From a candidate division WWE3 bacterium RIFCSPHIGHO2_02_FULL_38_14 (GTDB taxonomy: Bacteria; Patescibacteriota; WWE3; UBA101185; UBA10185), in the NCBI GenBank assembly GCA_001772865.1, contig MEVD01000015.1, forward strand, positions 9,084 through 73,083: a stretch of 64,000 bases of DNA. The letters are read 5' to 3'. This document shows, one piece after another, positions 2,872-43,734 of this stretch; position 1 is the first letter of the stretch; the number at the start of each line of letters is the position of its first letter. The notes under the pieces were generated by a model. The model was not told the origin of the DNA, searched no databases, and saw only the letters and a program-made list of their open reading frames with translations. A program made the translations under genes and the position numbers.

Positions 2872-3654
2872 ATGGAAACTCTAAAAAGAATTTTAGCAAA
2901 CAACATTTTTTTAAATAATTTCGTGTCCGTGTTTTTGATTTTATTATTGATCGTATTCAGTTTTGCGCTGGGAGTTTTTTGGACTAAGAGCAAATCTTTT
3001 GAAGAATATTTTAAAAACAACGGAGGTTCTCTTGCTGCCAACAATCCTAACAACCCCTCCGGTACAGGTACAGTCGATAACGGTGGGGGTATAGAGCCTA
3101 CAATTAATGTGGTAGAAATGGCTGCCAGTACAGGAGTTGACAGAAGTAAAGTTGAATCTTGTATTAATTCCGGAGAAGCGGCAAAAGATGTTGATGAAGA
3201 TTATCAGTCGGGGGTTAAGGCTGGTGTAACGGGAACACCTGGTAATTTCGTGCTAAATTTAAAAACTAATGAATATGTGCAGTTAAGGGGTGCAGTTCCT
3301 TATACTGAAGTTAAAAAAGCTATAGACGGCATGTTGGCCGGAACCGCCACAGATAGGGTTTTAAATACTAGTTTGGATAAACCATCCGATAAAGACAAGG
3401 TTAAAGGCAACAGAAATGCACAAGTCGCACTAATTGAATATTCAGACTACGAATGTCCGTTCTGTAAAAGGTTCCACCCTACAGTTAAACAGGCTTTAAA
3501 TGAATATGGAGACAAGATGATGTATGTATTAAGACAATTCCCTTTAAGTCAAATACATCCCAGCGCTCAAAAATTAGCTGAAGCCAGCGAATGTGTATAT
3601 AAGCTTGGCGGTGATGAAAAATTCTGGGCTTTTACCGATAAAGCGTTTGAATAA
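2872..3654 (+). CDS. Membrane-anchored DsbA-like thioredoxin-fold protein, circularly permuted relative to paralog 42848..43642
   Basis: N-terminal TM segment, then a segment homologous to the C-terminal half of the paralog (EDYQSGVKAGVTGTPGNFVL, the cis-Pro region), then a segment homologous to its N-terminal half (ALIEYSDYECPFCKRFHPT). Ends at FTDKAFE with no room before rsmI. Confidence 0.65.
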   Translation: METLKRILANNIFLNNFVSVFLILLLIVFSFALGVFWTKSKSFEEYFKNNGGSLAANNPNNPSGTGTVDNGGGIEPTINVVEMAASTGVDRSKVESCINSGEAAKDVDEDYQSGVKAGVTGTPGNFVLNLKTNEYVQLRGAVPYTEVKKAIDGMLAGTATDRVLNTSLDKPSDKDKVKGNRNAQVALIEYSDYECPFCKRFHPTVKQALNEYGDKMMYVLRQFPLSQIHPSAQKLAEASECVYKLGGDEKFWAFTDKAFE

Positions 3655-12036: not shown

Positions 12037-12114
12037 GCCCCCATAGCTCAGCGGATTCAGAGCACTTCGCTTCGGACGAAGGGGTCGGGAGTTCGAATCT
12101 CTCTGGGGGCGCCA
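12037..12114 (+). tRNA. trnR: tRNA-Arg (anticodon UCG)
   Basis: Cloverleaf folded by hand: acceptor GCCCCCA/TGGGGGC, anticodon stem CTTCG/CGAAG, loop CTTCGGA, T-loop TTCGAAT, encoded CCA. Confidence 0.85.
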
Positions 12115-12139
12115 TTAAAATAAGTGATATACTTTTAAT

Positions 12140-12544
12140 ATGAAAGCAACTTTACAGCATATTCAATTAAATGTTTCTAATAAAAATATTTCATATCCGT
12201 TTTATAAAGAAATGCTAAAGCTTTTGGGGTACAAACCATATTTGGAAGAAGATTGGGGCATAGGATTAAAGGATTCCAAATCAAATCTGGTGATTTTTAT
12301 AGTCGAAACCGAACAAAAATACAGGAAAAATAAATTTCACCGAAAAACTACCGGAATAAACCATTTAGCATTTTTGGTTGGTTCAAAAATAGATGTAGAC
12401 GAATTTAATAAAAAGTTTGTCAAGAAAAATAAAATTAAACCGCTATACCAAACTCCAAAAGCTTTTCCGGAATATACACCAAAATACTATGCAGTGTATT
12501 TTGAGGATCCGGACAGGATAAAACTCGAAGTAGTGTTTACGTGA
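12140..12544 (+). CDS. VOC/glyoxalase-family protein
   Basis: 134 aa, glyoxalase-like beta-alpha-beta-beta-beta pattern. Weak family assignment. Confidence 0.5.
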   Translation: MKATLQHIQLNVSNKNISYPFYKEMLKLLGYKPYLEEDWGIGLKDSKSNLVIFIVETEQKYRKNKFHRKTTGINHLAFLVGSKIDVDEFNKKFVKKNKIKPLYQTPKAFPEYTPKYYAVYFEDPDRIKLEVVFT

Positions 12545-12557
12545 ACGCCATATTGAA

Positions 12558-13343
12558 ATGCTGGATAATATAAAAATCAAAAAAGAGAACTTCAAAAATA
12601 CCTTCTCAAATAAAATAGAAAAATACAAAATCAATACATTTTTTGATGTTATGTATTCTGCGGTGTTCTTAGTATTCGCATTTTATTTACTGCCAATTAA
12701 CCTGTTATCATCGCTGGCGTCTTTAATCATAGCAATACTACTTTTCCCTAAGACATTCGAATATATACAAAGAAAAACAGGTATAAAGATTAAAAACGAT
12801 TTGAAAACTGCTATAATTTCCCTTTTATTTCTTTTGATGGGGTTTAGTGCTTCGAAATCGATTGGTTTAAATACCGAATCTCAAAATCAGAAAGAATCTA
12901 AGCCGAAAACTAATAATAGCACCAAAAATATTTTATATAAAGTAGACAGGGTTTTAGACGGTGACACCGTTGACGTTATATATAACAACGAGCTTATGAG
13001 AATAAGGCTAATCGGAATCGACGCTCCCGAAACCGGCGGAGGAAATACAAAAAAAGAATGCTATGCGGATGAATCAAAAAAATATTTAACTGACCTTTTA
13101 AATAACGATTATGTAAAACTGGAAAATGATGAAACCCAGAATGACAAAGACAGATATGATCGATCTCTCAGATATGTATTTTTAGAAGAATTGAATATTA
13201 ACAAAGACCTTGTTGAGAAAGGGTATGCCAAAGAATACACTTTTGACAAACCATATAAATACTCTGAAGAATTCCTTAATGCAGAAAAATCCGCCATCAA
13301 TCTTAAAATCGGCATTTGGAATCCCCAGATTTGCCCAAACTAA
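12558..13343 (+). CDS. Membrane-anchored thermonuclease (staphylococcal nuclease, SNase-like)
   Basis: VDRVLDGDTVDV...IRLIGIDAPET...DRYDRSLRYVF...GYAK are the SNase catalytic motifs. N-terminal TM segments. Confidence 0.75.
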   Translation: MLDNIKIKKENFKNTFSNKIEKYKINTFFDVMYSAVFLVFAFYLLPINLLSSLASLIIAILLFPKTFEYIQRKTGIKIKNDLKTAIISLLFLLMGFSASKSIGLNTESQNQKESKPKTNNSTKNILYKVDRVLDGDTVDVIYNNELMRIRLIGIDAPETGGGNTKKECYADESKKYLTDLLNNDYVKLENDETQNDKDRYDRSLRYVFLEELNINKDLVEKGYAKEYTFDKPYKYSEEFLNAEKSAINLKIGIWNPQICPN

Positions 13344-13398
13344 ATAAAACTGTTTTTTGAACGATTTTATTGTAAAATCAACTCGTAATTTATACCTT

Positions 13399-13473
13399 GG
13401 GGGCGTAGCTCAGCGGTAGAGCAGGGGACTCTTAATCCCTTGGTCGAGAGTTCGATTCTCTCCGCCCTCACCA
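13399..13473 (+). tRNA. trnK: tRNA-Lys (anticodon CUU)
   Basis: Acceptor GGGGGCG/CGCCCTC (one G-U), anticodon loop CTCTTAA, T-loop TTCGATT, CCA encoded. Confidence 0.85.
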
Positions 13474-13563
13474 ATAAAAATCCTAATCATAGTATAAATA
13501 TACCTTTGTGAATGCAAAAACTATTGACAAGCAAATCAGTTAATGATGTCATTAATATAATCC

Positions 13564-14727
13564 ATGCCCAAAACGAAAGTTAACAAAAAGGGAAAATCCA
13601 ATAAATCAAGTTCAAATTTTCTTCGTGTGTATGCAGTATTATTTTTAACTGCAACGGTAGGACTCGCTTTATTATCTAAATTCTCACCTGTATTTAATCA
13701 AATTAAACAGAATTCTCAGGTTTTGCAATCTTCGACCGGAAACGTTTATCCGGAGCATTTTTATGTTATGGATAATTCAGGTTCAATATCTTCCGACAGA
13801 CTGAAAATCGAAAAGTCGGCTACCAACTATTTAATTGACAAAATTGTTCCTCCGCGCGGTGGTGTATACAAATTCACAAATGTAGCATCATTACTTGCAA
13901 ACTTAACCACAAATAGAACAACTCTCCATAATGCCGCGAAAAGTCTTAAAGTTGCTGACGGAGGCGCAAGAGATTTTAAACTGGCCATAAATGTTGCGGT
14001 CGATAAACTTCTTTCTCAAAACGCAGTATGCCCAGCAATTGTAATACTTTCAGACGGGAAGTACTCAACAGAACAAGTAAGAACCGATGCACTTGCAGCT
14101 GCAGCAAACGCAAGAAGTAAAGGTGTCGCCATTTATGGAATCGCTGCAAAACCACGTTCTCAACACGATTCGGATTTTATAAAAGATTTAGCTAAGGGAA
14201 ACTGCGCTGGTTCACCTCATTGCGGTGAATTTCAAATACTTACAGGAACTAATATAGGTACAAAATTAAATACAATCATATCTCACATGAGTTCGCGATG
14301 TACAAAAAAGTTTACTTTTGAAAAGACTTTAAAATTATATAGAGATGGTCCTATTTCCGAACCACCTAACGATCAAGGATATCCCGGAGACCGGGCACTC
14401 TATAAAGTTCCTTTTACTAATACTGACACTACTGATTTGCTGAACATTTCAATAACAGACACTATACCCAGTTTTATGACATATCTACCCGGCTCTGCAA
14501 AGTTGTATTACAGCAATGGGACGATTACTCAATTATATCCCGTAAACAATGTAATAACTGCAAATGTTGGGAATGTATCACCTGCAAATTGGGCAAGACT
14601 CGAATTCGTAACATTAATTAATTCTGATGTTCCAAATGGTTACGTGATAACCAACAAAGCAACAGTTACGGGTTCTAACATTTCAAAAGTTGACGCAATA
14701 AGTCCCGCAATTACAATTGTTCGCTAA
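13564..14727 (+). CDS. Secreted/anchored von Willebrand factor A domain protein
   Basis: N-terminal TM/signal. MIDAS motif YVMDNSGSIS (DxSxS). C-terminal beta-rich domain. Confidence 0.65.
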   Translation: MPKTKVNKKGKSNKSSSNFLRVYAVLFLTATVGLALLSKFSPVFNQIKQNSQVLQSSTGNVYPEHFYVMDNSGSISSDRLKIEKSATNYLIDKIVPPRGGVYKFTNVASLLANLTTNRTTLHNAAKSLKVADGGARDFKLAINVAVDKLLSQNAVCPAIVILSDGKYSTEQVRTDALAAAANARSKGVAIYGIAAKPRSQHDSDFIKDLAKGNCAGSPHCGEFQILTGTNIGTKLNTIISHMSSRCTKKFTFEKTLKLYRDGPISEPPNDQGYPGDRALYKVPFTNTDTTDLLNISITDTIPSFMTYLPGSAKLYYSNGTITQLYPVNNVITANVGNVSPANWARLEFVTLINSDVPNGYVITNKATVTGSNISKVDAISPAITIVR

Positions 14728-14817
14728 TTAAGCTTACTATTATTCACAAAATCCATCATTTAAATAATTTCTAGTGTAAAATATCTTTCATAAATTACTT
14801 TCTTAGGATATTCATAA

Positions 14818-15168
14818 ATGAAAGATGTAACAAACGAAATACCAATTAAACAAATAGAAACTCTCCAAGAATATATAGTTAAAAAAGGAAATGAGAGAGG
14901 TTTCTCAAATGAAACTTTACATGAGCGATTAATGATTTTAGTTGAAGAAATAGGTGAACTAATGAAGGCTGTTCGTGTTAATAAAAAAGGGTTTATAGAT
15001 AATAAATTTAAATATGATGGGGACTTAGATGGAGAAATCTCTGATATTTTGACCATGATATTTTGGACAGCTGATAAGCTAAATATAGATATCTCCAAAG
15101 CTTTTGAGAAAAAAGAAAAGTTAAATAATAAAAGGGTTTGGGCTCGAAGAACTTATCCAAATAAATAA
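14818..15168 (+). CDS. MazG-like nucleotide pyrophosphohydrolase
   Basis: 116 aa. EEIGELMKA...R, the MazG/NTP-PPase EExxE motif region. Confidence 0.65.
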   Translation: MKDVTNEIPIKQIETLQEYIVKKGNERGFSNETLHERLMILVEEIGELMKAVRVNKKGFIDNKFKYDGDLDGEISDILTMIFWTADKLNIDISKAFEKKEKLNNKRVWARRTYPNK

Positions 15169-15209
15169 ATTTGAGCAAATTAATTAATTGGTTATGATAG
15201 AATTTATGC

Positions 15210-15720
15210 ATGATAAAAGCAATTTGCTTTGATTTGGACGGAGTTTATTTTACATCAGACAGCTTCAAAAACTTTAAGAATAATCTTCCAAAAGAAATAA
15301 ACGATGAAGAAAAAGTAAGTTATGTTTTGGCCAAATCTGAAGAAATGTTGATGTTTAAAACTGGAAAAATGAGTGAGGATGATTACTGGAACTATGCGAC
15401 CAGAGAATTAAAAATTAAAACAGATTTAAACGGTATCTGCGATTGTTTAAGAGAAAGCTACAATATAAACTACGATGTGGCTGATTATATTGAAAAAGTT
15501 AGAAGGGCTGGATATAAATCTTGTGTGTGCACGAATAACTTTATCACAAGGGTAAGAGAATTAGATAATGAGTGGGGATTTTTGGATCTATTTGATGTAA
15601 AGGTCTTTTGACGATGAAAATAAAATGACAGGTGCAAAAGATCTTGGAATTAACACCTTTTTATACAAAGATTTTCCGGATTTTATAAATAAATTGTCTT
15701 CATTAGGAATCAATATTTAA
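15210..15720 (+). pseudogene. HAD-superfamily hydrolase interrupted by a +1 frameshift at T-run 15606..15609
   Basis: Motif I ICFDLDGV, motif II CVCTNNF, then a stop. The next frame continues FDDENKMTGAKDLGINTFLY (motif III/IV). Removing one T restores ...DVKVFDDENK... Confidence 0.6.
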
Positions 15721-15755
15721 GGTAGAATTATACATTTGGAAAATATTTATTAAAT

Positions 15756-16675
15756 CTATCTAATACTTATAAAAGGAACTTCAGCTCCGCCGCCTAAATA
15801 AGTGGGAAGAATTCCGTTCCATTTTTCTATAGCCATTTTTTGCAGTACCAAGGGGTCAATGGTCTGTCTTAATATATCCTGTGCCCGAGCTTCCCCTTCC
15901 GCTCTGATTATTTTCTGCTGTTTAATAAATTCTTCCTGCTGTGCTTTAAATTCTTCGGTTTTCACTTTTTCCTGTTCAATTTGTTTTTGTTCTACGGCAG
16001 CAATATATCCGTCACTGAATTTGATCTGCCTCACTAAAAATTCGTCTAAAATGACTCCGTTTTCTTCAAATCCCGAAATTAGTCTGTTCTGCACACTTTG
16101 CTGATATTTAAAAACATCCCCGGTGTAAAGCTCTGAAGCCGGAAATTCTCTAGCCACATTCCTAGTAATTGAACGTGATTGCGCCTGCACAATTCTTGTT
16201 GCTATTTGGTCTTGAGTCCCAATATTTTGTGCCAACCACAATACCTTATCGGGATCCAGCCTGTATCTTAAAGTAAATCTTATGCTAACCTTCTGACCGT
16301 CTTTAGTTGTTGTATCTACCGGAAAATCAGCTGAATCGGAAGCTGTTTTTTGAACAGAGCTATTTAAATTAAATCCGCTGGATTCCCTGTTATAAAACTG
16401 ACTAGTTTGAGGCTGTTCTGCTGTTTCATAAATAATTTTCTGAGTATTGTAAAAAAAACTTTTTCAATCAGCGGTATTCTAAAGTTAAGACCCGGCGAAG
16501 CCAGTCTTTCAATCCTTCCGAACCTACTGACAACCCCGACAGTTCCGAATTCTACCGAATATAACGGGCTAAATCTTCCTAATAAAGATAGAACAATAAT
16601 TAATACTATAGAAATTATGAGAATTTTTTTAAGCTTGGAAGAGTCAAAAGAACCGGGAGTCACAATTTTCACCAT
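15756..16675 (-). pseudogene. SPFH/band-7 (HflK/C-like) protein split by frameshift near A8/T8 homopolymer 16441..16448
   Basis: N-terminal ORF (MVKIVTPGSF...GVVSRFGRIERLASPGLNFRIPLIEKVF) and the C-terminal ORF, which extends upstream in its own frame (...VDTTTKDGQKVSIRFTLRYRLDPDKVLWLAQNIGTQDQ...), overlap in different frames. A 1-nt insertion in the T8 run would fuse them. Confidence 0.6.
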
Positions 16676-16757
16676 ATCTATTAAAATATTATTACTATTT
16701 CCGGTGCTGTCAATAGATAACAATGATGTATAATTGCACCAAACAAGCGAGAACTGG

Positions 16758-16844
16758 GCCAGAGTGGTGAAACTGGTATACACGCTGTCTTCAGAGGGCA
16801 GTCCGCCTCGGCGGATGTGGGTTCAAATCCCACCTCTGGCACCA
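16758..16844 (+). tRNA. trnL: tRNA-Leu (anticodon CAG)
   Basis: Type II tRNA: acceptor GCCAGAG/CTCTGGC, 3-bp D stem, anticodon loop TTCAGAG, long variable arm CCGCC-TC-GGCGG, T-loop TTCAAAT, CCA. Confidence 0.85.
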
Positions 16845-16881
16845 TATAGATATAAGCTCCGGTTTGATTTAAAATTTAAGT

Positions 16882-17160
16882 GTGAAAGAAATAATTGGCC
16901 AATATAAAAATAAGATTATATTCGGCGTGATAATGCTAATAATTTTGGCGCCGATTTATTTCTCATTTGTAAATTCCAGAAGAGAACAAATCATTCAAAG
17001 CAGTCAGTGTGTAAACTTAAGAACCCAGGAAGTATGCGCAAAAAACGATAAATGCTACTGGGACAAGAGTAATACATTGTGCTGTGATAAATCGGAATAT
17101 GCCACAACGAGTTCTCTTGGTAAGAAGATTTGTTGTCCCAAAGGCAAAGTCTGCGAATAA
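16882..17160 (+). CDS. Small Cys-rich membrane/secreted protein
   Basis: 92 aa. N-terminal TM, then 8 Cys in CVNLRTQEVCAKNDKCYWDKSNTLCCDKSEY...KKICCPKGKVCE. Lies between the two tRNA-Leu genes. Confidence 0.4.
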   Translation: MKEIIGQYKNKIIFGVIMLIILAPIYFSFVNSRREQIIQSSQCVNLRTQEVCAKNDKCYWDKSNTLCCDKSEYATTSSLGKKICCPKGKVCE

Positions 17161-17211
17161 ATCCGGTTCTAATGATATAATGTTTAACGTCCGAACCCAG
17201 GAAATGCTTAC

Positions 17212-17298
17212 GGGCGGGTGGCGGAATTGGTATACGCGCAACGTTGAGGTCGTTGTGGGGTAAAACCCGTGCAGGTTCAACTCCTGTCCCGCCCACCA
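17212..17298 (+). tRNA. trnL: tRNA-Leu (anticodon GAG)
   Basis: Acceptor GGGCGGG/CCCGCCC, anticodon stem CAACG/CGTTG, loop TTGAGGT, long variable arm, T-loop TTCAACT, CCA. Listed ORF 16991..17491(-) overlaps it and is spurious. Confidence 0.85.
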
Positions 17299-17312
17299 AA
17301 AGATAAGTAAAA

Positions 17313-19031
17313 ATGAAATTAATCGACCTACATAAGCTTTTTAAACGCACCACAATCCTCTCAATAATATTTTTGGCAATATCAGCGATATTTTCCACTG
17401 CATCAGCACAATCATCATTTGAAAAAATAGACGTTTTCAATACTCTTATATTTGTAAATACTGACGGAACAATAGATGTAACCGAGTCCATATACTATGA
17501 TTTCGGACCTTTGCAAAGGCATGGTATTTACAGGGAGATTCCCTACCAGAAAAATAATGATAACGGAAAAATATTTAATATGAACATAGAAGTATTGGAA
17601 GTTTTAGACATACAAAGGGTTCCCTTTAAATACACTACAACAACATCAAACGGCAAATTAAACATAAAAATAGGAGATCCTGATAAATATGTAACAGGCG
17701 AAAAAATGTATCAATTAAAATACAAAGTTTCCGGAGCTTTAACTTATTTTTCCGATCATGACGAGCTTTATTGGAATGTAACCGGGGATGAGTGGGCTAT
17801 CCCAATCAGACATGCCAGTACAAAAATATTTCTTCCGGAAAATATTCAAAACAATACAACTATAGATTGTTACACTGGAGTAAAAGGCTCCACTTCATCT
17901 GACTGTGTCCCGGTGAAAGAAAAATCTAATATGTTTTTAGTCGAAACTAAAAATTCGTTAGATCCGTACGAAGGACTAACCTTCGCTGTCGGTTTTCCTA
18001 AAGGTTATGTAGCAGTATTGGAGCCTCAGAAAGATAATAGTGAAACGCTATTAAAAATTATTTTAATACTAGCTGCCATCGCCTGGTTTATATGGAACTT
18101 TGTATATCCGATTAAAATATTTTTAAACTGGTACGCGGATTATAAAAACTCCAAAAAAGCAAAAATAACGTCTGCATGGTTTTCTCCTCCAAAAGAAGCT
18201 CCTCACAAGCCATTTCCCCCGGCTTTAACGGCTCTTCTAGTGACTAAAAAGTTTGACAGCTTTCTAATTACTTCCACAATTATTCATTTAGCCCAGCGAG
18301 GGTATTTGAAAATTGTCCAGGAAGGAAAAAATGATTTTAATTTTGTGCTTTTAAAAGAATTTCATAATGACATTAAACTTTATGACTACGAATATACGTT
18401 GTTAAAAGCATTATTTAATGAAACTGCAGTAGGTGGTTTAGTTAAATTAAAAAGTCTTAAAAACGATAAAAATTATACAAAAAACATTTCCGATTTTAAC
18501 AAGAAACTTAGTAATGCACTTATTTCCAAAGGATTATTTACCGAAAGCATAGAAAAAGTAAATAAAAAATATTCAATTATCGGTGGAATTTCCCTTTATT
18601 TTTTAAGCTTAATAACAGCATTCACAGCATTTATATTCGGAAAAAAGTCCGCAAAAAGAACAGAATTAGGCATTGAAAAACTTGGCGAAGCAATCTCATT
18701 GAAGAACTTTTTAGTATCTCAAGACGAGCAATTGGATTTTCAGGCAAAAAACCAGATGTTTTTCGAAAAATTGCTACCTTATGCCACAGCATTTGGGGTA
18801 GAAGATATATGGGCTAAAAGATTTGCGGATTTGGAGTTTAAAAACCCCGATTGGTACGAAGGCAACTTTTACAGCGCATTGGCTTTTTCCTCTTTTTCTA
18901 GTAGTTTTAATTCAGGAGTCCGAAACGCTTCAATGACAGCTACCAGAAGCTCAAGCGGTTTCTCAAGCGGCGGCGGGGGAGGAGGATCATCAGGAGGAGG
19001 TGGTGGTGGAGGTGGAGGAGGAAGCTGGTAA
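17313..19031 (+). CDS. DUF2207-family membrane protein
   Basis: 572 aa. Signal peptide, extracellular domain, TM segments and the Gly/Ser-rich tail ending GGGGGGSW, all characteristic of DUF2207. Confidence 0.65.
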   Translation: MKLIDLHKLFKRTTILSIIFLAISAIFSTASAQSSFEKIDVFNTLIFVNTDGTIDVTESIYYDFGPLQRHGIYREIPYQKNNDNGKIFNMNIEVLEVLDIQRVPFKYTTTTSNGKLNIKIGDPDKYVTGEKMYQLKYKVSGALTYFSDHDELYWNVTGDEWAIPIRHASTKIFLPENIQNNTTIDCYTGVKGSTSSDCVPVKEKSNMFLVETKNSLDPYEGLTFAVGFPKGYVAVLEPQKDNSETLLKIILILAAIAWFIWNFVYPIKIFLNWYADYKNSKKAKITSAWFSPPKEAPHKPFPPALTALLVTKKFDSFLITSTIIHLAQRGYLKIVQEGKNDFNFVLLKEFHNDIKLYDYEYTLLKALFNETAVGGLVKLKSLKNDKNYTKNISDFNKKLSNALISKGLFTESIEKVNKKYSIIGGISLYFLSLITAFTAFIFGKKSAKRTELGIEKLGEAISLKNFLVSQDEQLDFQAKNQMFFEKLLPYATAFGVEDIWAKRFADLEFKNPDWYEGNFYSALAFSSFSSSFNSGVRNASMTATRSSSGFSSGGGGGGSSGGGGGGGGGGSW

Positions 19032-19086
19032 CCCTTTTTTCCAATTTGATATAATGGTTAAAATATTTATTTATTAGGAGGAATTT

Positions 19087-19539
19087 ATGACAATTAAAGG
19101 TGATTTACCTGATGTAGATGAAACAAAAAAAGTTGGATGGATTGAAGCAGATCCCGATAAGAATCAAGGTAGAAAGTTCTTGATAGCAGATAGGGACTTT
19201 GAATTACCTGATTGGGTAAAAGAAGACGGTTATGAACGACTTTTACAACGTGTGGGTATTAAAGAAGAGTTGGAAGGTGGATACAAAATTGTGATGTTGT
19301 TTGCCAACAACGATACCTCAGAATTTGATAGGGGTATATTATCACAATATTCGGAAGAAGCACTTGATCGCAACAAGGAATTCTATGACCCAAGAAACGT
19401 TATATCTTTTCCAACAATAGGACAAGCTCAAGTATGTGCCGCAGAATTGGTTAACTTTTTTGAAAGTACTACTGATCGTTATCAGTGGTCAAGTCGTAAG
19501 TATAATACAGATACAGGACATTGGGAAGTTGAGGAATAA
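19087..19539 (+). CDS. Hypothetical protein
   Basis: 150 aa. Strong SD (AGGAGG 8 nt upstream). No recognisable motifs. Confidence 0.5.
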   Translation: MTIKGDLPDVDETKKVGWIEADPDKNQGRKFLIADRDFELPDWVKEDGYERLLQRVGIKEELEGGYKIVMLFANNDTSEFDRGILSQYSEEALDRNKEFYDPRNVISFPTIGQAQVCAAELVNFFESTTDRYQWSSRKYNTDTGHWEVEE

Positions 19540-19570
19540 ACCATTCTAATTACAAAATAATATTAAGTAG

Positions 19571-19647
19571 GCGAGAATAGCTCAGTTGGCTAGAGCGTCT
19601 CCTTGCCAAGGAGAAGGTCGCGGGTTCGAATCCCGTTTCTCGCTCCA
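19571..19647 (+). tRNA. trnG: tRNA-Gly (anticodon GCC)
   Basis: Acceptor GCGAGAA/TTCTCGC, D stem GCTC/GAGC, anticodon loop TTGCCAA, T-loop TTCGAAT, discriminator U, CCA. Confidence 0.85.
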
Positions 19648-19730
19648 TAAAAATTACAAAAATATAAATAAAAATTTCCCTAAATTTGAAAGTTTTTGAA
19701 AGAAGCATATAATCAAAGCGGGTGGTATAA

Positions 19731-20243
19731 GTGCCTACTAATAAGCTTGTAATTAAACAGTCCGATAAAGCACTCTTAGTTGAGACCGGTACTCTTTATT
19801 TTTTGCTAATTGTTTTCCTTCTTCTTGCGCTTATTATATTTTCTTTAATAGTTCCTTTAATTTCACCAATAGTATCTGTTTATGTGATTGTCTTTGTATT
19901 CTTTTTGATAATCACTCTGGCGCTATTATTAGCTTTAATGATATGTGTGTTTTCGAAAAAATACTGGAACAAACGCGAATATGTTATAACTCCGGAGACA
20001 ATTATGGATTGTGAAGGAATGTTTAGCTCAAACTGTGTCTCCTATGAGCTTAAAGGAATGACTTCAATGGAAGTACACCAGACTGCCTTAGGTAAAAAGT
20101 TCAACTACGGCAATTTAATTGTAAGATTTATGGGTGGTGGATCTCTTTTGATGAAAGATATACCAGCACCGGAAATCCTGATAGTTAAAATACGGGAGCT
20201 TATTAGCAAAAAAGAAATAGAAGAAGAGAATAACGATAACTAA
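19731..20243 (+). CDS. Membrane protein with two N-terminal TM helices and a soluble C-terminal domain (bPH_2/YdbS-like?)
   Basis: 170 aa. Topology only. Confidence 0.35.
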   Translation: MPTNKLVIKQSDKALLVETGTLYFLLIVFLLLALIIFSLIVPLISPIVSVYVIVFVFFLIITLALLLALMICVFSKKYWNKREYVITPETIMDCEGMFSSNCVSYELKGMTSMEVHQTALGKKFNYGNLIVRFMGGGSLLMKDIPAPEILIVKIRELISKKEIEEENNDN

Positions 20244-20352
20244 ATTAAGACACATTATTACCCCTGCGTAATATAAACAAAATCTATCCAAATATCTCGC
20301 AAAATCGGTATTAAACTGATAAAATAGTGCAGTTAACTTTGCTATTTAGTGC

Positions 20353-20428
20353 GGGGCGGTAGCCAAGGTGGTCACGGCACCGGTCTGAAAAACCGGCTAT
20401 GTGAGTTCGACTCTCACCCTCCCCACCA
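20353..20428 (+). tRNA. trnF: tRNA-Phe (anticodon GAA)
   Basis: Acceptor GGGGCGG/CCTCCCC (one C-U mismatch at 5:68), anticodon stem CCGGT/ACCGG, loop CTGAAAA, T arm GTGAG-TTCGACT-CTCAC, discriminator A, CCA. Confidence 0.8.
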
Positions 20429-20476
20429 AATTCGGACACGAGTCCTCTTTTTAAATCCAACTGCTATAATTCAGGT

Positions 20477-21091
20477 ATGGTTGATAAAATTCTATATCTT
20501 ATTCAACAATCTGGTGTTTTAATGCTTATGCCTCGCTCACATAATAAACAGCTTGGCACAACCTTTGATAATGTTGCATCTCACAGTCACCATGTAGCCA
20601 TAATTGCATATTGTCTTACCCGTATGGAAGGTTTATCTCACGAAAACGCAATGAAAGCGACCACAATAGCAGTCTTTCACGATTTAGCAGAAGCGAGAAC
20701 AGGAGACTTGGATTTTGTAGCAAAGCATTACGGACATAACAATGAGGAACAAGCAGTAAAAGACCAGTTTTCAGGAATTAAGTTTGGAAAAGATTTGGAA
20801 GATTTGCTGAAAGAGTACGAGGAGATAGAAACAATAGAATCCAAATGCGCTAAAGATGCTGACAGTTTAGAGCAACTTTACCAAGAGTGGGTATTAATGT
20901 GGCAGGGAAATAAGCTTGCACAGAAATGGTTTGAGTCCGATTTTAAAGATAGAGTACCTGGTTTAAGAACAAAATCAGCGAGAGTTATAGCAAACAAAAT
21001 GAAAGATAGCAATCCCCAAGAGTGGTGGTGGTCTCAATTCGTTAAAGATGATATGGCAATAGATAGAGAGAAATTACTGGGAAAAATGTAA
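20477..21091 (+). CDS. HD-domain metal-dependent phosphohydrolase
   Basis: H..H...HD....AE..TGD pattern (SHSHHVAI...FHDLAEARTGD). Confidence 0.7.
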   Translation: MVDKILYLIQQSGVLMLMPRSHNKQLGTTFDNVASHSHHVAIIAYCLTRMEGLSHENAMKATTIAVFHDLAEARTGDLDFVAKHYGHNNEEQAVKDQFSGIKFGKDLEDLLKEYEEIETIESKCAKDADSLEQLYQEWVLMWQGNKLAQKWFESDFKDRVPGLRTKSARVIANKMKDSNPQEWWWSQFVKDDMAIDREKLLGKM

Positions 21092-21230
21092 GTTTTTGAC
21101 CCTAAAAAAAGTTCACAAACACCATTCATAATACCTCACCAAAGATATTTACTTCGCATTACAACTAAAAAAACTGTCCATTTAGACAAGGAAAGAGCTT
21201 TTAAAACACTCAAACTGATATAATATTTCC

Positions 21231-21995
21231 ATGAGCATTAAAAGGCTTTCTCACTTACTGGACAAGGAATTAGCCAAATTAAATGGTTCAGTTGGATTAA
21301 ATGTTAAATTTTTATCTTCTAATGAAATTTACACATACAATGGAAAAACGCAATTTTGGTCTGCCAGTGTAATTAAAATTCCTATTGCACTTACATTTTA
21401 TGAACAGATCAAAGAAAAGAACATAAATGATACTGAAAAAGTAAAAATAACCGAAGATAATTATGTACTGGGCTCAGGAATCGCTAAACTATTAGACAAA
21501 AACAACAAATATACCTTTAAAGATTTAATAACTTTAATGTTAGTAGTTTCTGATAATACAGCTACTAATCAAATAGTTGATTTTATCGGTTGGGAATCGG
21601 TAGAAAAATATATGAAGGAAATAGGACTTGAAAATACAACTTTTAAACATAAAATGATGATTAAAGCGGGTAGAGGTCCAAACTTAACTACCCCTGAAGA
21701 AATGACAACTTTATTGGAAAGGATGTACAAAAATGAATTGCCTGGTTCGGAAATAGTTTTAAAAATAATGCAGGAGCAGCTTGACAGGACAAGAATTCCT
21801 CAACTTATCCCAAATGAAATACCAATATCTCATAAATTTGGTACATTACCCGAAGCATTACACGAAGTAGGAATTATTTACTCGAAAAATCCCTTTATCT
21901 TTTGCTTTTTTTCAGATGATCAAAAAGATAAAAAATTAACCAATGAGGTGTTGTCCGTGTGCGCAAAGCATTGTTTTGACTACTCAATGAAATAG
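21231..21995 (+). CDS. Class A beta-lactamase-like serine hydrolase (cytoplasmic, no signal peptide)
   Basis: SxxK (SASVIK), SDN (SDNTATN) and KTG-like HKFGT motifs in the correct order. Confidence 0.65.
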   Translation: MSIKRLSHLLDKELAKLNGSVGLNVKFLSSNEIYTYNGKTQFWSASVIKIPIALTFYEQIKEKNINDTEKVKITEDNYVLGSGIAKLLDKNNKYTFKDLITLMLVVSDNTATNQIVDFIGWESVEKYMKEIGLENTTFKHKMMIKAGRGPNLTTPEEMTTLLERMYKNELPGSEIVLKIMQEQLDRTRIPQLIPNEIPISHKFGTLPEALHEVGIIYSKNPFIFCFFSDDQKDKKLTNEVLSVCAKHCFDYSMK

Positions 21996-22039
21996 ATGAC
22001 GAGTATTAGAATTCACCCAAAATACAACTTTTAATAAAA

Positions 22040-22546
22040 GTGGATTATAATCAGATTATGTTAAAAACACCGGCAGCGACCATGGAAGGTGTAGAAAGTC
22101 TTAGACATCCCGGGGAAATAGTTATGCCTGAAACTTTTGATGCAGTAGCGATTGCGCTATCAAAAATAAAAGGGTATCCGCTAGACATAATGGTAGACCA
22201 TAAATCCGCTGTTTCACAACAAGAAATACTTGCTGCTTGGATCATGGGAGTGTCATCAATAGGGACCTCATATAAAGATATAAATCCGGACATTTTATTA
22301 GCAAATGCCCATCTTGGCGGTGAACAAAGAGAAGCAGCCGACATGTTATTGAGTACTTTGGATACTTTATCAGATTTCGCAATTACTGAAACACTTAAAG
22401 CTGGAGTAAACGGTGTTATAGCAGAAGCTGAAAAACAACTAAAGAAAAAAGGGTATCCTACGGATTCACCGGAAATACAGGACCTGTATAAATTAAATGC
22501 CGCAAAATCAATGTTTAATTCTACATACCCTCAAGACAAAAAGTAG
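22040..22546 (+). CDS. Hypothetical protein
   Basis: 168-aa ORF, no recognised motifs. Confidence 0.4.
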   Translation: MDYNQIMLKTPAATMEGVESLRHPGEIVMPETFDAVAIALSKIKGYPLDIMVDHKSAVSQQEILAAWIMGVSSIGTSYKDINPDILLANAHLGGEQREAADMLLSTLDTLSDFAITETLKAGVNGVIAEAEKQLKKKGYPTDSPEIQDLYKLNAAKSMFNSTYPQDKK

Positions 22547-22580
22547 ATAGATAGACTTTCAGGTAGTTAATAGTAAATGA

Positions 22581-24290
22581 TCATAATTTTTTGCAAGCTT
22601 CAACAAATCCCAAAAATATAGGATGAGGATTTAAAGGCCTGCTCATATATTCGGGGTGGAACTGAGTTCCGATATAAAACGGGTGGTCTTTAATTTCAAT
22701 TGCTTCTACAAGCTCTCCGTCCGGAGAATGTCCGGCAAAAACAAATCCGTTTTTTTCAAAATCTTTCTTGAATTTGTTATTAAATTCATATCTATGTCTG
22801 TGGCGCTCAAATACTAATTTTTCTGATTTTTCTGAATTATTTTTTAAGTTAAAGCCGACTCTAAGTCCGTCCGGCTGATTCCACGGTAAATTTTTATCAT
22901 TATTATATTTCCCATACAAGTCATATAGTTTTGTGTCTTTTTTAATGTAGCAGGGCCAGGCTCCCAGCCTGATTGTGCCACCGTATTGCTTTTTAATTAG
23001 ATATTCAAGCTGGTTAGGCATAATATGTATTACAGGGTATTTTGTATCTGGATCGGCTTCAGTGGTATTTGCTCCTTTCAAACCGAGTACATTACGGGCG
23101 AATTCTATAACTGCCATCTGCATTCCAAAACATAACCCTAAATAAGGCAATTTATTCTTCCTGGCATATTCTATAGCAATTACTTTACCTTCAGTTCCCC
23201 TGGATCCCCAGCCCTGCGGAACTACCAAACCGTTATAGTTTTTTAGAATTGCAGCCCCTCCTTTTTCTATTTTTTCACTATCAATCCAGTCAAACTTTAA
23301 GTTTACCCCATTCTGCCACGAGGCGTGCCTTAAAGCTTCTACAACAGAAACGTATGAGTCTATAAGCGAGTAGTCGCCAGTAACAAAATATTTTCCTACA
23401 ATGGCAATTTTTACTGTAATTTTCCATTTTTTAACCGCATTATTGGTCATTTCCTGCCACGAAGATATTTCTTTGTGCTTCTTGCTTCCCATACCTAATA
23501 ATTTTAAACAAGCTGTGGCAAAATGATGCTGGGGTTTGTGAAAAAGAAGAGGAACCTGATATATCGCATCTAAATCAGGTGCATTAAATAACATGTTTGG
23601 GGGAATATTACAAAAAAGAGCTAATTTATCTGCTCTCTTTTTATCAATTGGTTTTTCACTTCTGGCAACTATTATATCAGGCTGAATTCCCATCCCATTT
23701 AAAATATGAACACTTGTCTGCGCGGGCTTACTCTTTAATTCTCCGATATGGGCAAGGTATGGCAGATAAGTTACATGAACGTGTATTACATCTTTAGGCT
23801 TGCGAAGTTTTAATATTCTTGCCGCTTCAAAAAAAATGCCGTTTTTATATTCGCCTACCGTGCCGCCGTATTCAATAACAACTATTTCGGCTTTATTGGC
23901 TTCTCCCGCATATGTAATTCTCCTGATTATTTCATCCGTAACATGGGGGATAACATCTACCGTCTCTCCGCTGTATTCAAATGCCCGCTCTTTTCTTATC
24001 ACCTCGCTGTATATCTGGCCTGCGGTTATGTAGTTTTCTTTTTTAAGATTCTCGTGAACAAACCTTTCGTAGTGTCCTAAATCCTCATCGGTTTCCATAC
24101 CGTCGTGGGTGACAAAAACTTCTCCGTGCTCCTGAGGGCGCAAAGTACCAGCGTCTACATTAAAATACATATCAACTTTTACGGGGGTGACTTTAAATCC
24201 TCTGGATTTAAGTAAAAATGAGAGAGATGCTGTAATAATTCCTTTTCCTAAACCCGATACTACTCCACCGGAAACAAAAATATATTTCAT
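22581..24290 (-). CDS. pyrG: CTP synthase
   Basis: MKYIFVSGGVVSGLGKGI N-terminus and the glutamine amidotransferase domain (GLCFGMQ, HPE). True start is at 24290 with SD GGAGGA 7 nt upstream. The track ORF adds a 16-aa N-terminal extension. Confidence 0.9.
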   Translation of the reverse strand: MKYIFVSGGVVSGLGKGIITASLSFLLKSRGFKVTPVKVDMYFNVDAGTLRPQEHGEVFVTHDGMETDEDLGHYERFVHENLKKENYITAGQIYSEVIRKERAFEYSGETVDVIPHVTDEIIRRITYAGEANKAEIVVIEYGGTVGEYKNGIFFEAARILKLRKPKDVIHVHVTYLPYLAHIGELKSKPAQTSVHILNGMGIQPDIIVARSEKPIDKKRADKLALFCNIPPNMLFNAPDLDAIYQVPLLFHKPQHHFATACLKLLGMGSKKHKEISSWQEMTNNAVKKWKITVKIAIVGKYFVTGDYSLIDSYVSVVEALRHASWQNGVNLKFDWIDSEKIEKGGAAILKNYNGLVVPQGWGSRGTEGKVIAIEYARKNKLPYLGLCFGMQMAVIEFARNVLGLKGANTTEADPDTKYPVIHIMPNQLEYLIKKQYGGTIRLGAWPCYIKKDTKLYDLYGKYNNDKNLPWNQPDGLRVGFNLKNNSEKSEKLVFERHRHRYEFNNKFKKDFEKNGFVFAGHSPDGELVEAIEIKDHPFYIGTQFHPEYMSRPLNPHPIFLGFVEACKKL

Positions 24291-24469
24291 CAGCCATCCT
24301 CCGAAGCAATCAAAAAAGAACGCAGCATATGCGTTCACTTATTACAATATTAATACAATCTAAACTGTAAAGTCAATAAAAGTTTTAAGAAGCGGGTAGT
24401 AAACTTAATTATTAAATTTAGGTATAATTAGAAAATAAAAGTATATTAATTTATGATTATTTTAGTTGA

Positions 24470-25705
24470 ATGACTAATACACCACACATAAAACTAATTT
24501 TAATAACTATTGTAACTATTTTGCTCGCGGGCATAGTTTTATTTATCGAAAAATATCTCGGAAATACAGGTTCGATTTCAATTTTAAGAATAAACGAAAA
24601 TGGAGGTATTTCTTTTGTGCCGCTTGAAAATACCGAACTTGCTATAAAAACTGTTACAGATAAACAATCGGAAAATAAAGTTGACTATAAAATACAGGAA
24701 ATTGCAAAAAACCTTGACGTGCCTTGGAGCATAGCTTTTACTGCTGATAAAAGAACATTGGTAACCGAAAGAAAAGGAAATATAAGAGTACTGGAAAACA
24801 CAATTCTTAAAACCCAGCCCTTAATTACGATTAACGACGTTGTAACAGGCGATGAGGAAGGATTAATGGGTCTGGCAGTTGATCCTGATTATGATAATAA
24901 TAAATATATTTACGCCTGCTACGCATACTTGGAAGTAAATAATATGTACGATAAAGTTCTGCGTTTAATTGATAACGGTGAAAGTGCGGAAATTGACCGA
25001 ATATTAATAGAAAAAATTCCCGCAGCAAGATACCATGCCGGATGCAGGCTCAAGTTCGGACCGGACGGCAAATTGTATATAACAACCGGAGACGCCTTAA
25101 ATAAAGACCAGGCTCAGGATTTAAAATCTCTCGGCGGAAAAATTCTCAGAATAGAAAGAGACGGATCGATTCCGGATGACAACCCGTTTATTGATTCGCC
25201 GGTTTATACTTACGGGCACAGAAATCCCCAGGGAATTGAATGGAATAAAAGCACCGGACTTATGGTTTCTACTGAACACGGCCCCAGCGGCACGGACGGT
25301 CCAGGAGGCGGTGACGAAATAAATATAATTAATCCCGGTAAAAACTATGGCTGGCCTTTGGTTTCGCACGAAGGCACTTTGAGCGGCACTGAAAGCCCCA
25401 AAATGGTTTTTACCCCTGCAGTAGCACCCGCTTCCGCACTAATGTATTCCGGAAAGTTATTCCCCCAATTTAAAGACAAATTATTTTTCGGGGGACTGAG
25501 GGGGGAAGGAGTTTATGTGGTCTCATTTTCCGAGGAAGAACCCGAAAAAGTAGAAACTTACGTAAAATTGAAAAACTTAAATTTCGGTCGAATCAGAGAT
25601 ATAGTAGAGAGTCCATCAGGGGAAATCTGGTTTACTACCAGCAATACCGATGGAAGAGGCAACGTTAGGGACGGCGACGACAAGATTTATAGGTTGTCGC
25701 TTTAA
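24470..25705 (+). CDS. Soluble glucose/sorbosone dehydrogenase-like beta-propeller (PQQ-dependent SGDH family)
   Basis: N-terminal anchor, then DVPWSIAFTADKRTLVTERKGNIRVL and repeated propeller blades. Confidence 0.7.
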   Translation: MTNTPHIKLILITIVTILLAGIVLFIEKYLGNTGSISILRINENGGISFVPLENTELAIKTVTDKQSENKVDYKIQEIAKNLDVPWSIAFTADKRTLVTERKGNIRVLENTILKTQPLITINDVVTGDEEGLMGLAVDPDYDNNKYIYACYAYLEVNNMYDKVLRLIDNGESAEIDRILIEKIPAARYHAGCRLKFGPDGKLYITTGDALNKDQAQDLKSLGGKILRIERDGSIPDDNPFIDSPVYTYGHRNPQGIEWNKSTGLMVSTEHGPSGTDGPGGGDEINIINPGKNYGWPLVSHEGTLSGTESPKMVFTPAVAPASALMYSGKLFPQFKDKLFFGGLRGEGVYVVSFSEEEPEKVETYVKLKNLNFGRIRDIVESPSGEIWFTTSNTDGRGNVRDGDDKIYRLSL

Positions 25706-25719
25706 CCGTATTTTACGCT

Positions 25720-26097
25720 CTATAAATATTTTTGGTTTATAAGAAAAATATATTCCGGATCCAGCTCTAAAACACTCAATGTCTGATTTGATGGCCTGAA
25801 TCTGTACTTTTCAATATCCAGAGTTAAATTATTATTAACTTTAATGTTTTCCGACTCAAGCATTTCTTTCTGCATAATTGCTGTGTGATCCAAACAGTTC
25901 GTGCTAATCCTCCCCGCACTATTTATAACCCTCCACCACGGCAGATTGTATTTATCAGAATAATCATGAAGAACCCACCCCACCTGCCTTGCCGCTCTGG
26001 GAACACCTGCCATTAATGCCACCTGACCGTAGCTGACGACATATCCTAAGGGAATTAATTTAACTATTTGAATAATTTTATCTTTAAATTTAGACAC
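25720..26097 (-). CDS. Alkyltransferase-like protein (MGMT/Ogt DNA-binding domain lacking the active-site Cys)
   Basis: PLGYVVSYGQVALMAG.PRAARQVG...LPWWRVIN: PWWRV replaces PCHRV. Confidence 0.65.
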   Translation of the reverse strand: MSKFKDKIIQIVKLIPLGYVVSYGQVALMAGVPRAARQVGWVLHDYSDKYNLPWWRVINSAGRISTNCLDHTAIMQKEMLESENIKVNNNLTLDIEKYRFRPSNQTLSVLELDPEYIFLINQKYL

Positions 26098-26115
26098 TTG
26101 TGATATTATACTATT

Positions 26116-26730
26116 ATGAAAGGTGCTGCTGTTGCTGACGAAACAGAGGATTTAAAAGGCTTGGAATATAACGCCTCAATAGAGTTACGAAATTTAGAAG
26201 CTGCTGAAAAAGAGCTAACTACATCAGACCACCTCTTAACTCCACAAGAAATTGTAGACTATTTCGAGCAGAGAATCAGCACTAATATTGCTTTAATTGA
26301 ATATTATAGAGGAAAGGGATTGGAAATGTATGAAGCTGATGAAGAAAGCGGCAAATCAGTATTATCCCGATTAGGAACAGCAGTGCATGATAATTCATTT
26401 GTTGAACATATGATAGGAAAACTTAAAGAAAGCGGTTCTTTGCAGGAGTTTGTTGCCATGAACCCACCCGCCTCAAATGGTAAATCCGGCACCTCACTAT
26501 TAAAGGAGGTTGCACAGGAATTGCACAATGCAAGGGCTCATGTGAAAAACAGAAACAACTTTGTAGAGACCTCTAATTTGGATGAGGCAATTGCTGATTT
26601 AATAGGAAATGAAAGATGGGTAAGGATTTTACAACATGAAAGCGAAAATATTGGAACAGCCTATATAGAACCAGAAGTAAGCTTCAATGCCGGTTTTCAG
26701 AAAATGGTATCATCTGAATCAAGTATTTAA
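26116..26730 (+). CDS. Hypothetical protein
   Basis: 204 aa, acidic, no motifs. Confidence 0.4.
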   Translation: MKGAAVADETEDLKGLEYNASIELRNLEAAEKELTTSDHLLTPQEIVDYFEQRISTNIALIEYYRGKGLEMYEADEESGKSVLSRLGTAVHDNSFVEHMIGKLKESGSLQEFVAMNPPASNGKSGTSLLKEVAQELHNARAHVKNRNNFVETSNLDEAIADLIGNERWVRILQHESENIGTAYIEPEVSFNAGFQKMVSSESSI

Positions 26731-26776
26731 AGTACCTTGCAAATCCATTTATTTTATAATTAAATTATGGAAATTT

Positions 26777-26852
26777 GGGGGGTTAGCTCAGCGGTTAGAG
26801 CGCTCGGCTTACATCCGAGAGGTCATAAGTTCAAATCTTATATCCCCCACCA
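26777..26852 (+). tRNA. trnV: tRNA-Val (anticodon UAC)
   Basis: Acceptor GGGGGGT/ATCCCCC, D stem GCTC/GAGC, anticodon stem CTCGG/CCGAG, loop CTTACAT, T-loop TTCAAAT, CCA. Confidence 0.85.
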
Positions 26853-26947
26853 TTATAACGCTTCGTAGTTCACACCAAAAAGGTTGTAGGTTCAATTCAT
26901 ATAACCCCAACAACATTTTTCACAATATAATTTAATTAGTGGGATTT

Positions 26948-27328
26948 TTAACTAAACAATTCTTTTAAACTTTTTGGAAATCCCTTCAAATACAAAAGCG
27001 CCAAAGGTGCTCCGATATTCGCAAACCGTTCCAAAAAGTCCCAAATAGGCTCGCCGGCAATAGGACGGATCAGCGCTGTGGAAAATGCCCAAAATGTCAT
27101 CCAAACCAGCGCCAGCCTCAAAGGTTTAATAAGTACTAAAACTGCCAGAGTAATATCCAAAGCGCCGATTATAGGCATAATTGTTGAGGCAGTTTCCGCG
27201 GGAATACCAACCGAAGTTAAATATGGAATCCAGCTTTGCTTAACCATCAGCCCGAACACACCATGTCCTATAAACTCACCGGCTACTGCTATTCTTAAAA
27301 TCCATTCTAATTTTTTATTTTTATCCAT
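26948..27328 (-). CDS. DoxX-family membrane protein
   Basis: 126 aa, 4 TM. N-terminus LRIAVAGEFIGHG is typical of DoxX. Confidence 0.6.
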   Translation of the reverse strand: MDKNKKLEWILRIAVAGEFIGHGVFGLMVKQSWIPYLTSVGIPAETASTIMPIIGALDITLAVLVLIKPLRLALVWMTFWAFSTALIRPIAGEPIWDFLERFANIGAPLALLYLKGFPKSLKELFS

Positions 27329-27358
27329 AATTAATTAAATTATATTATAAATTAAATA

Positions 27359-32638: not shown

Positions 32639-32748
32639 TTTTCCCCGAATAAATTATAATGCATTAAAGCAAGGTACTCTATAATTAAATCAGTGGGTTT
32701 AAAATTAAATTAAATTCATATGACACCTGCCGGAAAAGAATTAAAAGA

Positions 32749-33669: not shown

Positions 33670-33722
33670 ATTCCATTGACTCGATGAGAATTTAGACTGA
33701 AGATTTTGAAACTGCCGGGTTT

Positions 33723-33731
33723 TGGTATAAT
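33723..33731 (+). promoter_or_regulatory. Extended -10 promoter element (TGgTATAAT) upstream of tRNA-Gln
   Basis: TG-n-TATAAT at 33723..33731, about 26 nt upstream of the mature tRNA 5' end. Confidence 0.45.
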
Positions 33732-33757
33732 TTACGCGTTACTAACACAGATATTAA

Positions 33758-42839: not shown

Positions 42840-42847
42840 GTTGTATG

Positions 42848-43642: not shown

Positions 43643-43692
43643 AAATTATTCATGTAATAAGATGCTAGATATTACTACCACAAATAAATATA

Positions 43693-43709: not shown

Positions 43710-43734
43710 ATGTATTGGCAATCTTGTCAATATT

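Follow-up and report, generated by a model that had tools for sequence, protein, structure and literature searches.

Introduction

Enzymes of the DsbA family have a canonical linear order, in which the half with the CxxC active site comes first, a helical insert follows, and the half with the cis-proline loop comes last. DsbA is also a textbook model for engineered circular permutation. Hennecke, Sebbel and Glockshuber reportedly engineered circular permutants of E. coli DsbA in 1999, and Manjasetty et al. are said to have described in 2004 a folded cpDsbA with a five-residue linker, the global fold of which is retained in the crystal. The linker of the construct cpDsbA_Q100T99, which has the PDB entry 1UN2 titled 'circularly permuted CPDSBA_Q100T99', we take to be GGGTG. 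In this work, we analysed gene A, located in a stretch of 64,000 nucleotides (below, the window) from candidate division WWE3 bacterium RIFCSPHIGHO2_02_FULL_38_14 (contig MEVD01000015.1, positions 9,084 to 73,083). Its product is best described as a natural, so far unannotated permuted version of DsbA, a counterpart to the classic protein-engineering experiment. In the literature, where coverage was poor for most subscription journals, no natural permuted DsbA was found, only the engineered permutants of the E. coli enzyme.

The closest described relatives of the A protein would be Pseudomonas aeruginosa DsbA2 (PaDsbA2), Wolbachia alpha-DsbA and Bacillus subtilis BdbD, within the Pfam family Thioredoxin_4. 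BdbD (3EU3) and the MdbA/TsdA proteins of C. diphtheriae, membrane-anchored or lipoprotein DsbA homologs of monoderm bacteria, belong to this family too and, like A, are oxidoreductases of DsbA type tethered to the membrane outside the cytoplasm; they differ from it in their canonical order. BdbD works with BdbC as its partner and is not known to have the second Cys pair of A. PaDsbA2 (4N30) is the closest solved sequence relative, with E 4.5e-20 for gene B, the canonical paralog in the same window, and 2.5e-21 for the profile of permuted proteins. In the alpha-DsbA class, represented by PaDsbA2 and Wolbachia alpha-DsbA1 (3F4R), the defining features are four conserved cysteines and a Thr ahead of the cis-Pro (PMC3870256). 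PaDsbA2 shares with A the CPFC active site, this Thr and the four conserved cysteines, two of which form its helical-domain disulfide. However, the proteins of this class are soluble, periplasmic and of canonical order, and A aligns with them only one half at a time.

The halves of the DsbA domain are swapped in gene A

The original prediction, made from the letters of the DNA alone, described A as a circularly permuted DsbA-like protein and B as its paralog with the canonical order. Both open reading frames (ORFs) are present where they had been placed. Using BLASTP, we found two blocks of similarity between the proteins, each of which is collinear: A156-260 matched B71-174 with 55% identity (E 9e-39), and A82-155 matched B189-262 with 47% identity (E 7e-23). 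The blocks occur in swapped order and jointly cover one domain. The predicted identity of 55–60% per segment fits the CPxC half and was slightly high for the cis-Pro half. The transmembrane (TM) and spacer regions (A1-76 and B1-84) matched weakly (E 0.035). The sole part of the B domain without a counterpart in A is a 14-residue coil, B175-188 (VTPANNGLDLATLP).

The Pfam halves were reversed as well. For A, Thioredoxin_4 (PF13462) scored 65.1 bits against a cut-off of 23.2 and DSBA (PF01323) scored 55.3 bits against a cut-off of 25.6, each in two stretches. DSBA profile positions 117-190 fell on A residues 72-151, and Thioredoxin_4 positions 4-87 on residues 174-259; the match of B to Thioredoxin_4 positions 4-164 was collinear. 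The reversed linear order sets A apart as a variant that otherwise has the features of the DsbA family. The A chain would start inside the helical insert with the cis-Pro half. In this half, three insert helices precede the Thr122-Pro123 loop, which is followed by two beta strands and by the final helix of the thioredoxin fold. A 15-residue linker would lead from there into the CPxC half, in which beta1 and beta2 come before the active-site helix and beta3 after it; the chain ends with the first two insert helices. The intergenic DNA around gene A measures only 31 nt and 38 nt, so that there is no room for leftover 'missing' halves at the locus.

Gene B encodes a TM segment, the CPFC site at residues 109-112, Cys155, the coil at 175-188, Cys204 and Thr229-Pro230. 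It is 264 residues long when read from TTG at 43642 and 260 residues long when read from ATG at 43630; the ATG is probably the true start, as in an NCBI protein of 100% identity. A protein of WWE3 bacterium RIFCSPHIGHO2_12_FULL_38_15 matches the B domain with 100% identity. The DNA similarity of A and B is confined to 67 nt around the CPFC codons, which rules out a recent duplication of B into A. In the CPxC half, canonical proteins of other genomes reach up to 66% identity to A, compared with 55% for B. Since closer canonical proteins exist elsewhere and so little DNA similarity is left, B is a paralog of A and not its direct parent.

Predicted structure of the permuted domain

We modelled residues 72-260 of A as a monomer using AlphaFold2 (AF2). 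The model is one compact domain with a mean predicted local distance difference test score (pLDDT) of 94.4 and a predicted TM-score (pTM) of 0.90. In the numbering of the model, three helices (H9-14, H20-29, H33-45), two strands (E53-58, E63-68) and a helix (H73-85) are followed by the linker, two strands (E105-108, E114-120), the CPFC helix (H125-141), a strand (E145-151) and two helices (H161-175, H177-188). The CPFC residues 195-198 of A are model residues 124-127 and stand directly before helix H125-141, and the G-T122-P123 sequence is followed by strand E53-58. The model of B, used as a control (pLDDT 93.3), shows these elements in the canonical order; its coil at model residues 107-114 is the exact point at which the chain of A is cut. 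The original prediction had also considered that the two halves might be partial domains unable to fold together, and the model, a complete DsbA fold, gives this no support.

A Foldseek comparison with the PDB gave only one match for A at E<=1e-3, the engineered cpDsbA_Q100T99 (1UN2; E 3.3e-4, 194 columns), which is also the sole approximately full-length alignment among its high-probability matches. Natural DsbAs (4N30, 3F4R, 6EEZ, 3EU3, ScsC, BcfH) aligned with A over 83-95 columns at 1.2-2.3 Å. In the control comparison, B matched 203 entries at E<=1e-3, and natural DsbAs aligned with it over 175-194 columns with TM-scores of 0.75-0.86 (0.82-0.86 for BdbD). When the alignment of permuted proteins was used as a sequence-profile query against the PDB, every chain was matched through one half only. 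According to the model, A has the topology of the laboratory construct: beta3 is followed by two insert helices, and three more precede the cis-Pro strand. The cut of A in the surface coil between two insert helices would be the topological equivalent of that in cpDsbA_Q100T99. Both proteins have their new termini within the helical insert, and a linker connects the former termini, so that the thioredoxin part is continuous. Unlike A, cpDsbA_Q100T99 is a laboratory construct made from a gamma-proteobacterial periplasmic DsbA, without a TM anchor and without the second disulfide. The natural permuted proteins differ from it in their linkers of 12-47 residues, in the conserved Cys pair that flanks the termini, and in being kept by selection. 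Judged from sequence and model together, the natural circular permutation in A is real and conserved, and the protein is predicted to form a complete DsbA fold.

In PaDsbA2, Cys111 and Cys157 form a disulfide that links two helices of the helical domain (4N30), and residues 131-151 between these helices are a coil; mutation of Cys111/Cys157 lowers the redox potential from -67.5 to -118 mV (PMC3870256). The two cysteines align with Cys155/Cys204 of B and hence with Cys241/Cys97 of A, and the 131-151 coil aligns with the segment absent from A. Thus, A has the extra Cys pair in the helical domain as well as the Thr before the cis-Pro. By analogy with PaDsbA2, Cys97 and Cys241 of A would form a disulfide. 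The permutation would remove the surface coil, and the pre-existing disulfide of the insert would then tie the new N- and C-terminal helices together. Such a staple would enclose 144 residues in A against 49 in B and could compensate for the broken chain. That a pre-existing disulfide pays for a broken chain as a terminal staple is a testable biophysical idea. The native Cys pairing in A would be nested (C97...C195/C198...C241) instead of consecutive.

All catalytic elements would be kept in A, and the folded protein would exchange its CPFC disulfide with substrate cysteines like an ordinary DsbA; we infer that it is enzymatically active. With CPFC and Thr-cis-Pro it is most like the strongly oxidising PaDsbA2 class, and by this analogy it would be a disulfide-forming oxidase. 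The TM anchor with a spacer of about 40 residues is arranged as in B and in monoderm DsbA homologs. We consider it very probable that A is a functional membrane-anchored extracytoplasmic DsbA-class oxidoreductase with a naturally circularly permuted catalytic domain. Several points weigh against this. The AF2 alignment for A was shallow, with only 13 sequences, and the DsbA fold is one with which AF2 is familiar. The match between A and 1UN2 is modest (TM-score 0.51, root-mean-square deviation 6.3 Å, 19% identity). Nested Cys pairing is harder to form, and the extra pair might have a different redox state. As to the role as an oxidase or a reductase, Pfam and NCBIfam recognised no VKOR or DsbB in the window, and no partner gene recurs beside the permuted genes in other loci.

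Permuted DsbA proteins in other genomes

The exact A sequence was found on 21 contigs and in four NCBI entries from metagenome-assembled genomes (MAGs) of candidate division WWE3, namely OGC46732.1, which is gene A itself and is annotated as 'hypothetical protein', and three more. The only database names for it are 'hypothetical protein' and 'Thioredoxin domain-containing protein'. Its 78%-identical ortholog P0002, from an independent ENA assembly, agrees with A in length, in the order of its halves and in its murA-gene-methylase neighbours. Permuted proteins made up 10 of the top 120 homolog clusters, at 42-92% identity, and 20-21 of the best 80 GTDB species-representative loci. The titles of their records name Woesebacteria, WWE3, Kerfeldbacteria, Peribacteria, Amesbacteria, Kaiserbacteria, Komeilibacteria, Magasanikbacteria, Levyibacteriota and Paceibacterota. 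An exhaustive search of 1.84 billion representatives of 50%-identity clusters with the permuted profile gave about 49,675 hits, and among the best 150 there were at least 17 full-length permuted clusters (about 250 residues) matched in a single stretch. Since collinear hidden Markov models (HMMs) split permuted DsbAs into two partial matches, the oxidative-folding capacity of the ultra-small bacteria of the candidate phyla radiation (CPR) is under-annotated.

For the comparison of the family, 47 distinct permuted proteins were collected from many CPR lineages, down to about 34% identity. The CPxC site, the Thr-cis-Pro and the second Cys pair are each kept in 47/47, and Thr precedes the cis-Pro in all 178 canonical relatives as well. 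An N-terminal TM segment is present in all permuted proteins but one (46/47), with a median spacer of 42 residues between anchor and domain. The stop codon lies at most two residues from the common helix end '...FWxFTDxxFE' in 33 of the 47. The linkers are 12-47 residues long (8 residues between motif boundaries in L023) and are unrelated between subgroups. Thus, the order of halves that was predicted for A is conserved in related genomes.

Some permuted-DsbA contigs carry labels from outside the CPR, namely 'uncultured Gammaproteobacteria' or 'Pseudomonadales' for L002, L004, L007, L016 and L038 and 'Woesearchaeota archaeon' for L023. Either these labels are placeholders or mislabels, or the family has spread beyond the CPR. 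The metagenome protein P0001 (263 residues) is identical to A over the first ~190 residues and diverges sharply from it in the last ~70, which comprise the helices after CPFC. This mosaic pattern suggests recombination with another DsbA copy.

Origin of the permuted architecture

Fused DsbA domains are common among the relatives of A. We scored 22 two-domain and 62 three-domain tandem proteins, and the longest had up to six domains. Examples are P0094 (TM-DsbA-DsbA), P0053, in which the first active site is CPFS, L037 and L061. The internal junction of these proteins, formed by a C-half, a linker and an N-half, is collinear with the whole permuted domain; the tandem proteins differ from A in having two to six complete domains (400-1196 residues), some with degenerate active sites, and A is one domain's worth. 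Residues 89-260 of A align contiguously with residues 166-337 of P0094 (39% identity, E 4e-25), a region that spans the cis-Pro half of domain 1, the linker and the CPxC half of domain 2. Positions 71-259 of the permuted profile likewise gave contiguous matches in many tandem arrays. Contiguous junction alignments together with tandem arrays are what duplication followed by truncation predicts. The permuted architecture would have arisen from a tandem DsbA-DsbA fusion that lost its leading CPxC half and its trailing cis-Pro half, and the tandem proteins are presumed to be evolutionary intermediates. The duplication-then-truncation route of the original prediction is thus supported by sequence comparison and not proven. 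The nearest non-permuted relatives of A are single-domain canonical proteins and not tandem ones; tandem proteins are nearest only in the case of subgroup G2. With the engineered permutant also made by nature, maintained in many lineages by strong selection and accompanied by its tandem intermediates in the databases, permutation by duplication is illustrated here with unusual completeness.

Adjacent DsbA genes on the same strand are frequent in CPR loci (L014, L029, L055, L076, L078, L028, L050, L067), and at L014:1179-2793 a permuted copy stands beside a canonical one. Such adjacent genes are raw material for fusions and permutations. In three tandem proteins (P0170, P0246, P0257), the linkers between domains are about 110 residues long and contain a conserved module with a CxxC-like motif (VNDGTCDACDP...), which appears to be an additional small domain between the DsbA repeats.

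In CPR bacteria, permutation has probably occurred more than once. For the origin tests, the permuted proteins were rearranged to canonical order and compared over 168 profile columns with distance methods. A neighbour-joining tree of these canonicalised units contained no permuted clade (best Jaccard 0.21). We also cross-validated quartets, either by picking the neighbours on odd columns and testing them on even columns or by setting one half against the other half. For most pairs, 170-200 of 200 bootstraps placed a permuted subgroup with its own canonical or tandem relatives. It is unlikely, though well worth weighing, that there was one ancient permutation and that the polyphyly comes from poor resolution, compositional bias and gene conversion with co-resident canonical paralogs. 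In its favour, every permuted member is cut in the same coil; 31 of the 47 permuted units have a permuted nearest neighbour, and their mean distance to one another is 0.94, compared with 1.02 to other units. The P0001 mosaic indicates that recombination occurs, and the basis is only 168 columns and distance methods. Apart from the quartets, the sequence tails speak against a single origin: subgroup G2 (L012/L016/L038/L074) and its tandem relatives P0257, P0170 and P0175 have the common 'FWE[FY]HD..Q..W', L063 retains the 'VTPSNDGMDITL' coil, and the group of A ends right at 'FE'. The lack of relationship between the linkers of different subgroups points the same way; the linkers are too variable for any of them to be informative on homology as a marker of origin. 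We consider at least three independent origins suggested by these sequence comparisons to be more likely than one, though the short alignments, distance methods, compositional effects and gene conversion weaken this preference.

Folding and selection

If the halves of A did not complement each other within one chain, the protein could work by domain swapping, as a dimer or oligomer, or its halves could each pair with another protein. Permuted and tandem-repeat proteins often swap domains, the linker length of the family varies widely, and the model of A is that of a monomer only. Nevertheless, we regard swapping as improbable, because the monomer model reached its pTM of 0.90 with a linker pLDDT of ~89-94, the engineered cpDsbA is a folded molecule (1UN2), and each half fits natural DsbAs at 1.2-2.3 Å within the single-chain model.

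Comparison of A with the P0002 gene gave a ratio of nonsynonymous to synonymous substitution rates (dN/dS) of 0.06-0.07, with dS near saturation. Gene A is under purifying selection. Therefore, it is very improbable that A is a decaying remnant of a tandem DsbA-DsbA fusion, non-functional or becoming a pseudogene. Degeneration does occur in tandem arrays, where CxxC is lost in 8 of 89 domains and the extra Cys pair in 34 of 89, as the CPFS site in domain 1 of P0053 illustrates; against decay of A stand the low dN/dS, the catalytic and structural residues that are invariant in all 47 proteins down to ~34% identity, the clean boundaries and the confident compact model. An assembly or annotation artefact, in which tandem DsbA genes were misjoined or frameshifted into an ORF of permuted appearance, is conceivable given the adjacent same-strand genes and fused tandem proteins of related genomes, yet we give it practically no credence, since 21 contigs and four separately deposited MAGs carry the identical protein, the 78% ortholog agrees in length, order and neighbours, many genomes contribute to the 47 distinct permuted proteins, and the short flanks have no space for missing halves; the misassembled tandem duplicate that had initially been considered is likewise excluded.

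Gene context and possible redox partners

The coordinates of gene A, its parts and the related genes of the window are collected in Table 1.

Table 1. Positions of gene A, its parts and related genes in the window
Feature	Position	Strand	Basis
Gene A, predicted circularly permuted DsbA-class thiol:disulfide oxidoreductase, 260 residues and stop	2872..3654	+	ORF; swapped match to B; reversed Pfam halves; database identity
Predicted N-terminal TM anchor, about residues 15-37, NNFVSVFLILLLIVFSFALGVFW	2914..2982	+	hydropathy scan; weakly resembles the anchor of B
Low-complexity Gly/Asn/Pro spacer from anchor to domain, residues 38-80	2983..3111	+	sequence; low pLDDT in first residues of model
Cis-Pro half, residues 81-155	3112..3336	+	canonical C-half HMM; BLASTP to B189-262; model elements
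Cys97 codon, first of the extra pair, near new N-terminus	3160..3162	+	invariant; aligns with PaDsbA2 Cys157
Thr122-Pro123 codons, cis-Pro loop with preceding Thr of alpha-DsbA type	3235..3240	+	invariant 47/47; class definition (PMC3870256)
Linker, residues 156-170, AGTATDRVLNTSLDK, joining canonical C- and N-termini	3337..3381	+	between the two HMM halves; pLDDT ~89-94
CPxC half, residues 171-260, stop codon directly after	3382..3651	+	canonical N-half HMM; BLASTP to B71-174; model elements
Active site Cys195-Pro-Phe-Cys198 codons	3454..3465	+	sequence; CPxC in 47/47
Cys241 codon, second of the extra pair, near new C-terminus	3592..3594	+	invariant; aligns with PaDsbA2 Cys111
CcdA/DsbD_TM electron transporter, directly downstream of B; context of B, not A	42087..42839	-	Pfam DsbD_TM, E 2.4e-19
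Gene B, canonical-order DsbA paralog	42848..43642	-	BLASTP; Pfam; model pLDDT 93.3; full-length Foldseek matches

The order murA-A-rsmI is common only to A and its 78% ortholog. None of the neighbours of A in the window is shared by 20 distant permuted loci, and the three permuted contexts annotated with Pfam contain housekeeping genes of various kinds, without a redox partner that recurs. At L084:2033-4492, on a metagenomic contig, the gene of the permuted DsbA P0020 comes immediately downstream of genes for a thioredoxin and a thioredoxin-reductase-like protein (Pyr_redox_2), a connection to a cytoplasmic redox pair unseen in the other loci.

Gene B belongs to an operon on the reverse strand (41545..45083) with a BlaI/CopY-family repressor, an M56/M48 peptidase, CcdA (DsbD_TM) and a DUF3105 protein. 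Nearby (45138..47616 and 53201..55447) are a Cys-rich 205-residue ORF with GPCCCRCWRW and no family match, a 7-TM CSDC protein with a weak DUF411 match, and a HMBD heavy-metal P-type ATPase. Together with the operon, these regions form an apparent copper/redox island. The PDB relatives of B include ScsC copper-resistance proteins. This context suggests, speculatively, that B might serve a reducing or copper-stress branch fed by CcdA, and that A might be a stand-alone oxidase.

A wider reading would combine several independent natural permutations of DsbA in CPR/Patescibacteria, each made in the same coil as in cpDsbA_Q100T99, a site favoured because the disulfide staple nearly cyclises the domain, with a division of labour in these minimal cells between a permuted, stand-alone oxidase and a canonical, reducing copper-stress copy on the CcdA side. 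We put this forward tentatively and regard it in its entirety as somewhat doubtful. If true, it would amount to a natural replicate experiment on evolutionarily accessible permutation sites, with all intermediates extant. The permuted DsbA reveals no new chemistry, mechanism or kind of system.

A 158-residue ORF on the reverse strand (45945..46421) adjoins the DsbA(B)/CcdA operon. It has about four TM segments, the first of which is followed directly by a CPIC motif, and it ends in ...NCC; it matched no Pfam or NCBIfam family. Given its place beside the operon, this ORF may encode a membrane thiol oxidoreductase that has escaped recognition, analogous to DsbB/VKOR. No rRNA or other Rfam family was found in the window at gathering score; its nine tRNA genes all lie on the forward strand, at 12037..33828 and 62435..62505.

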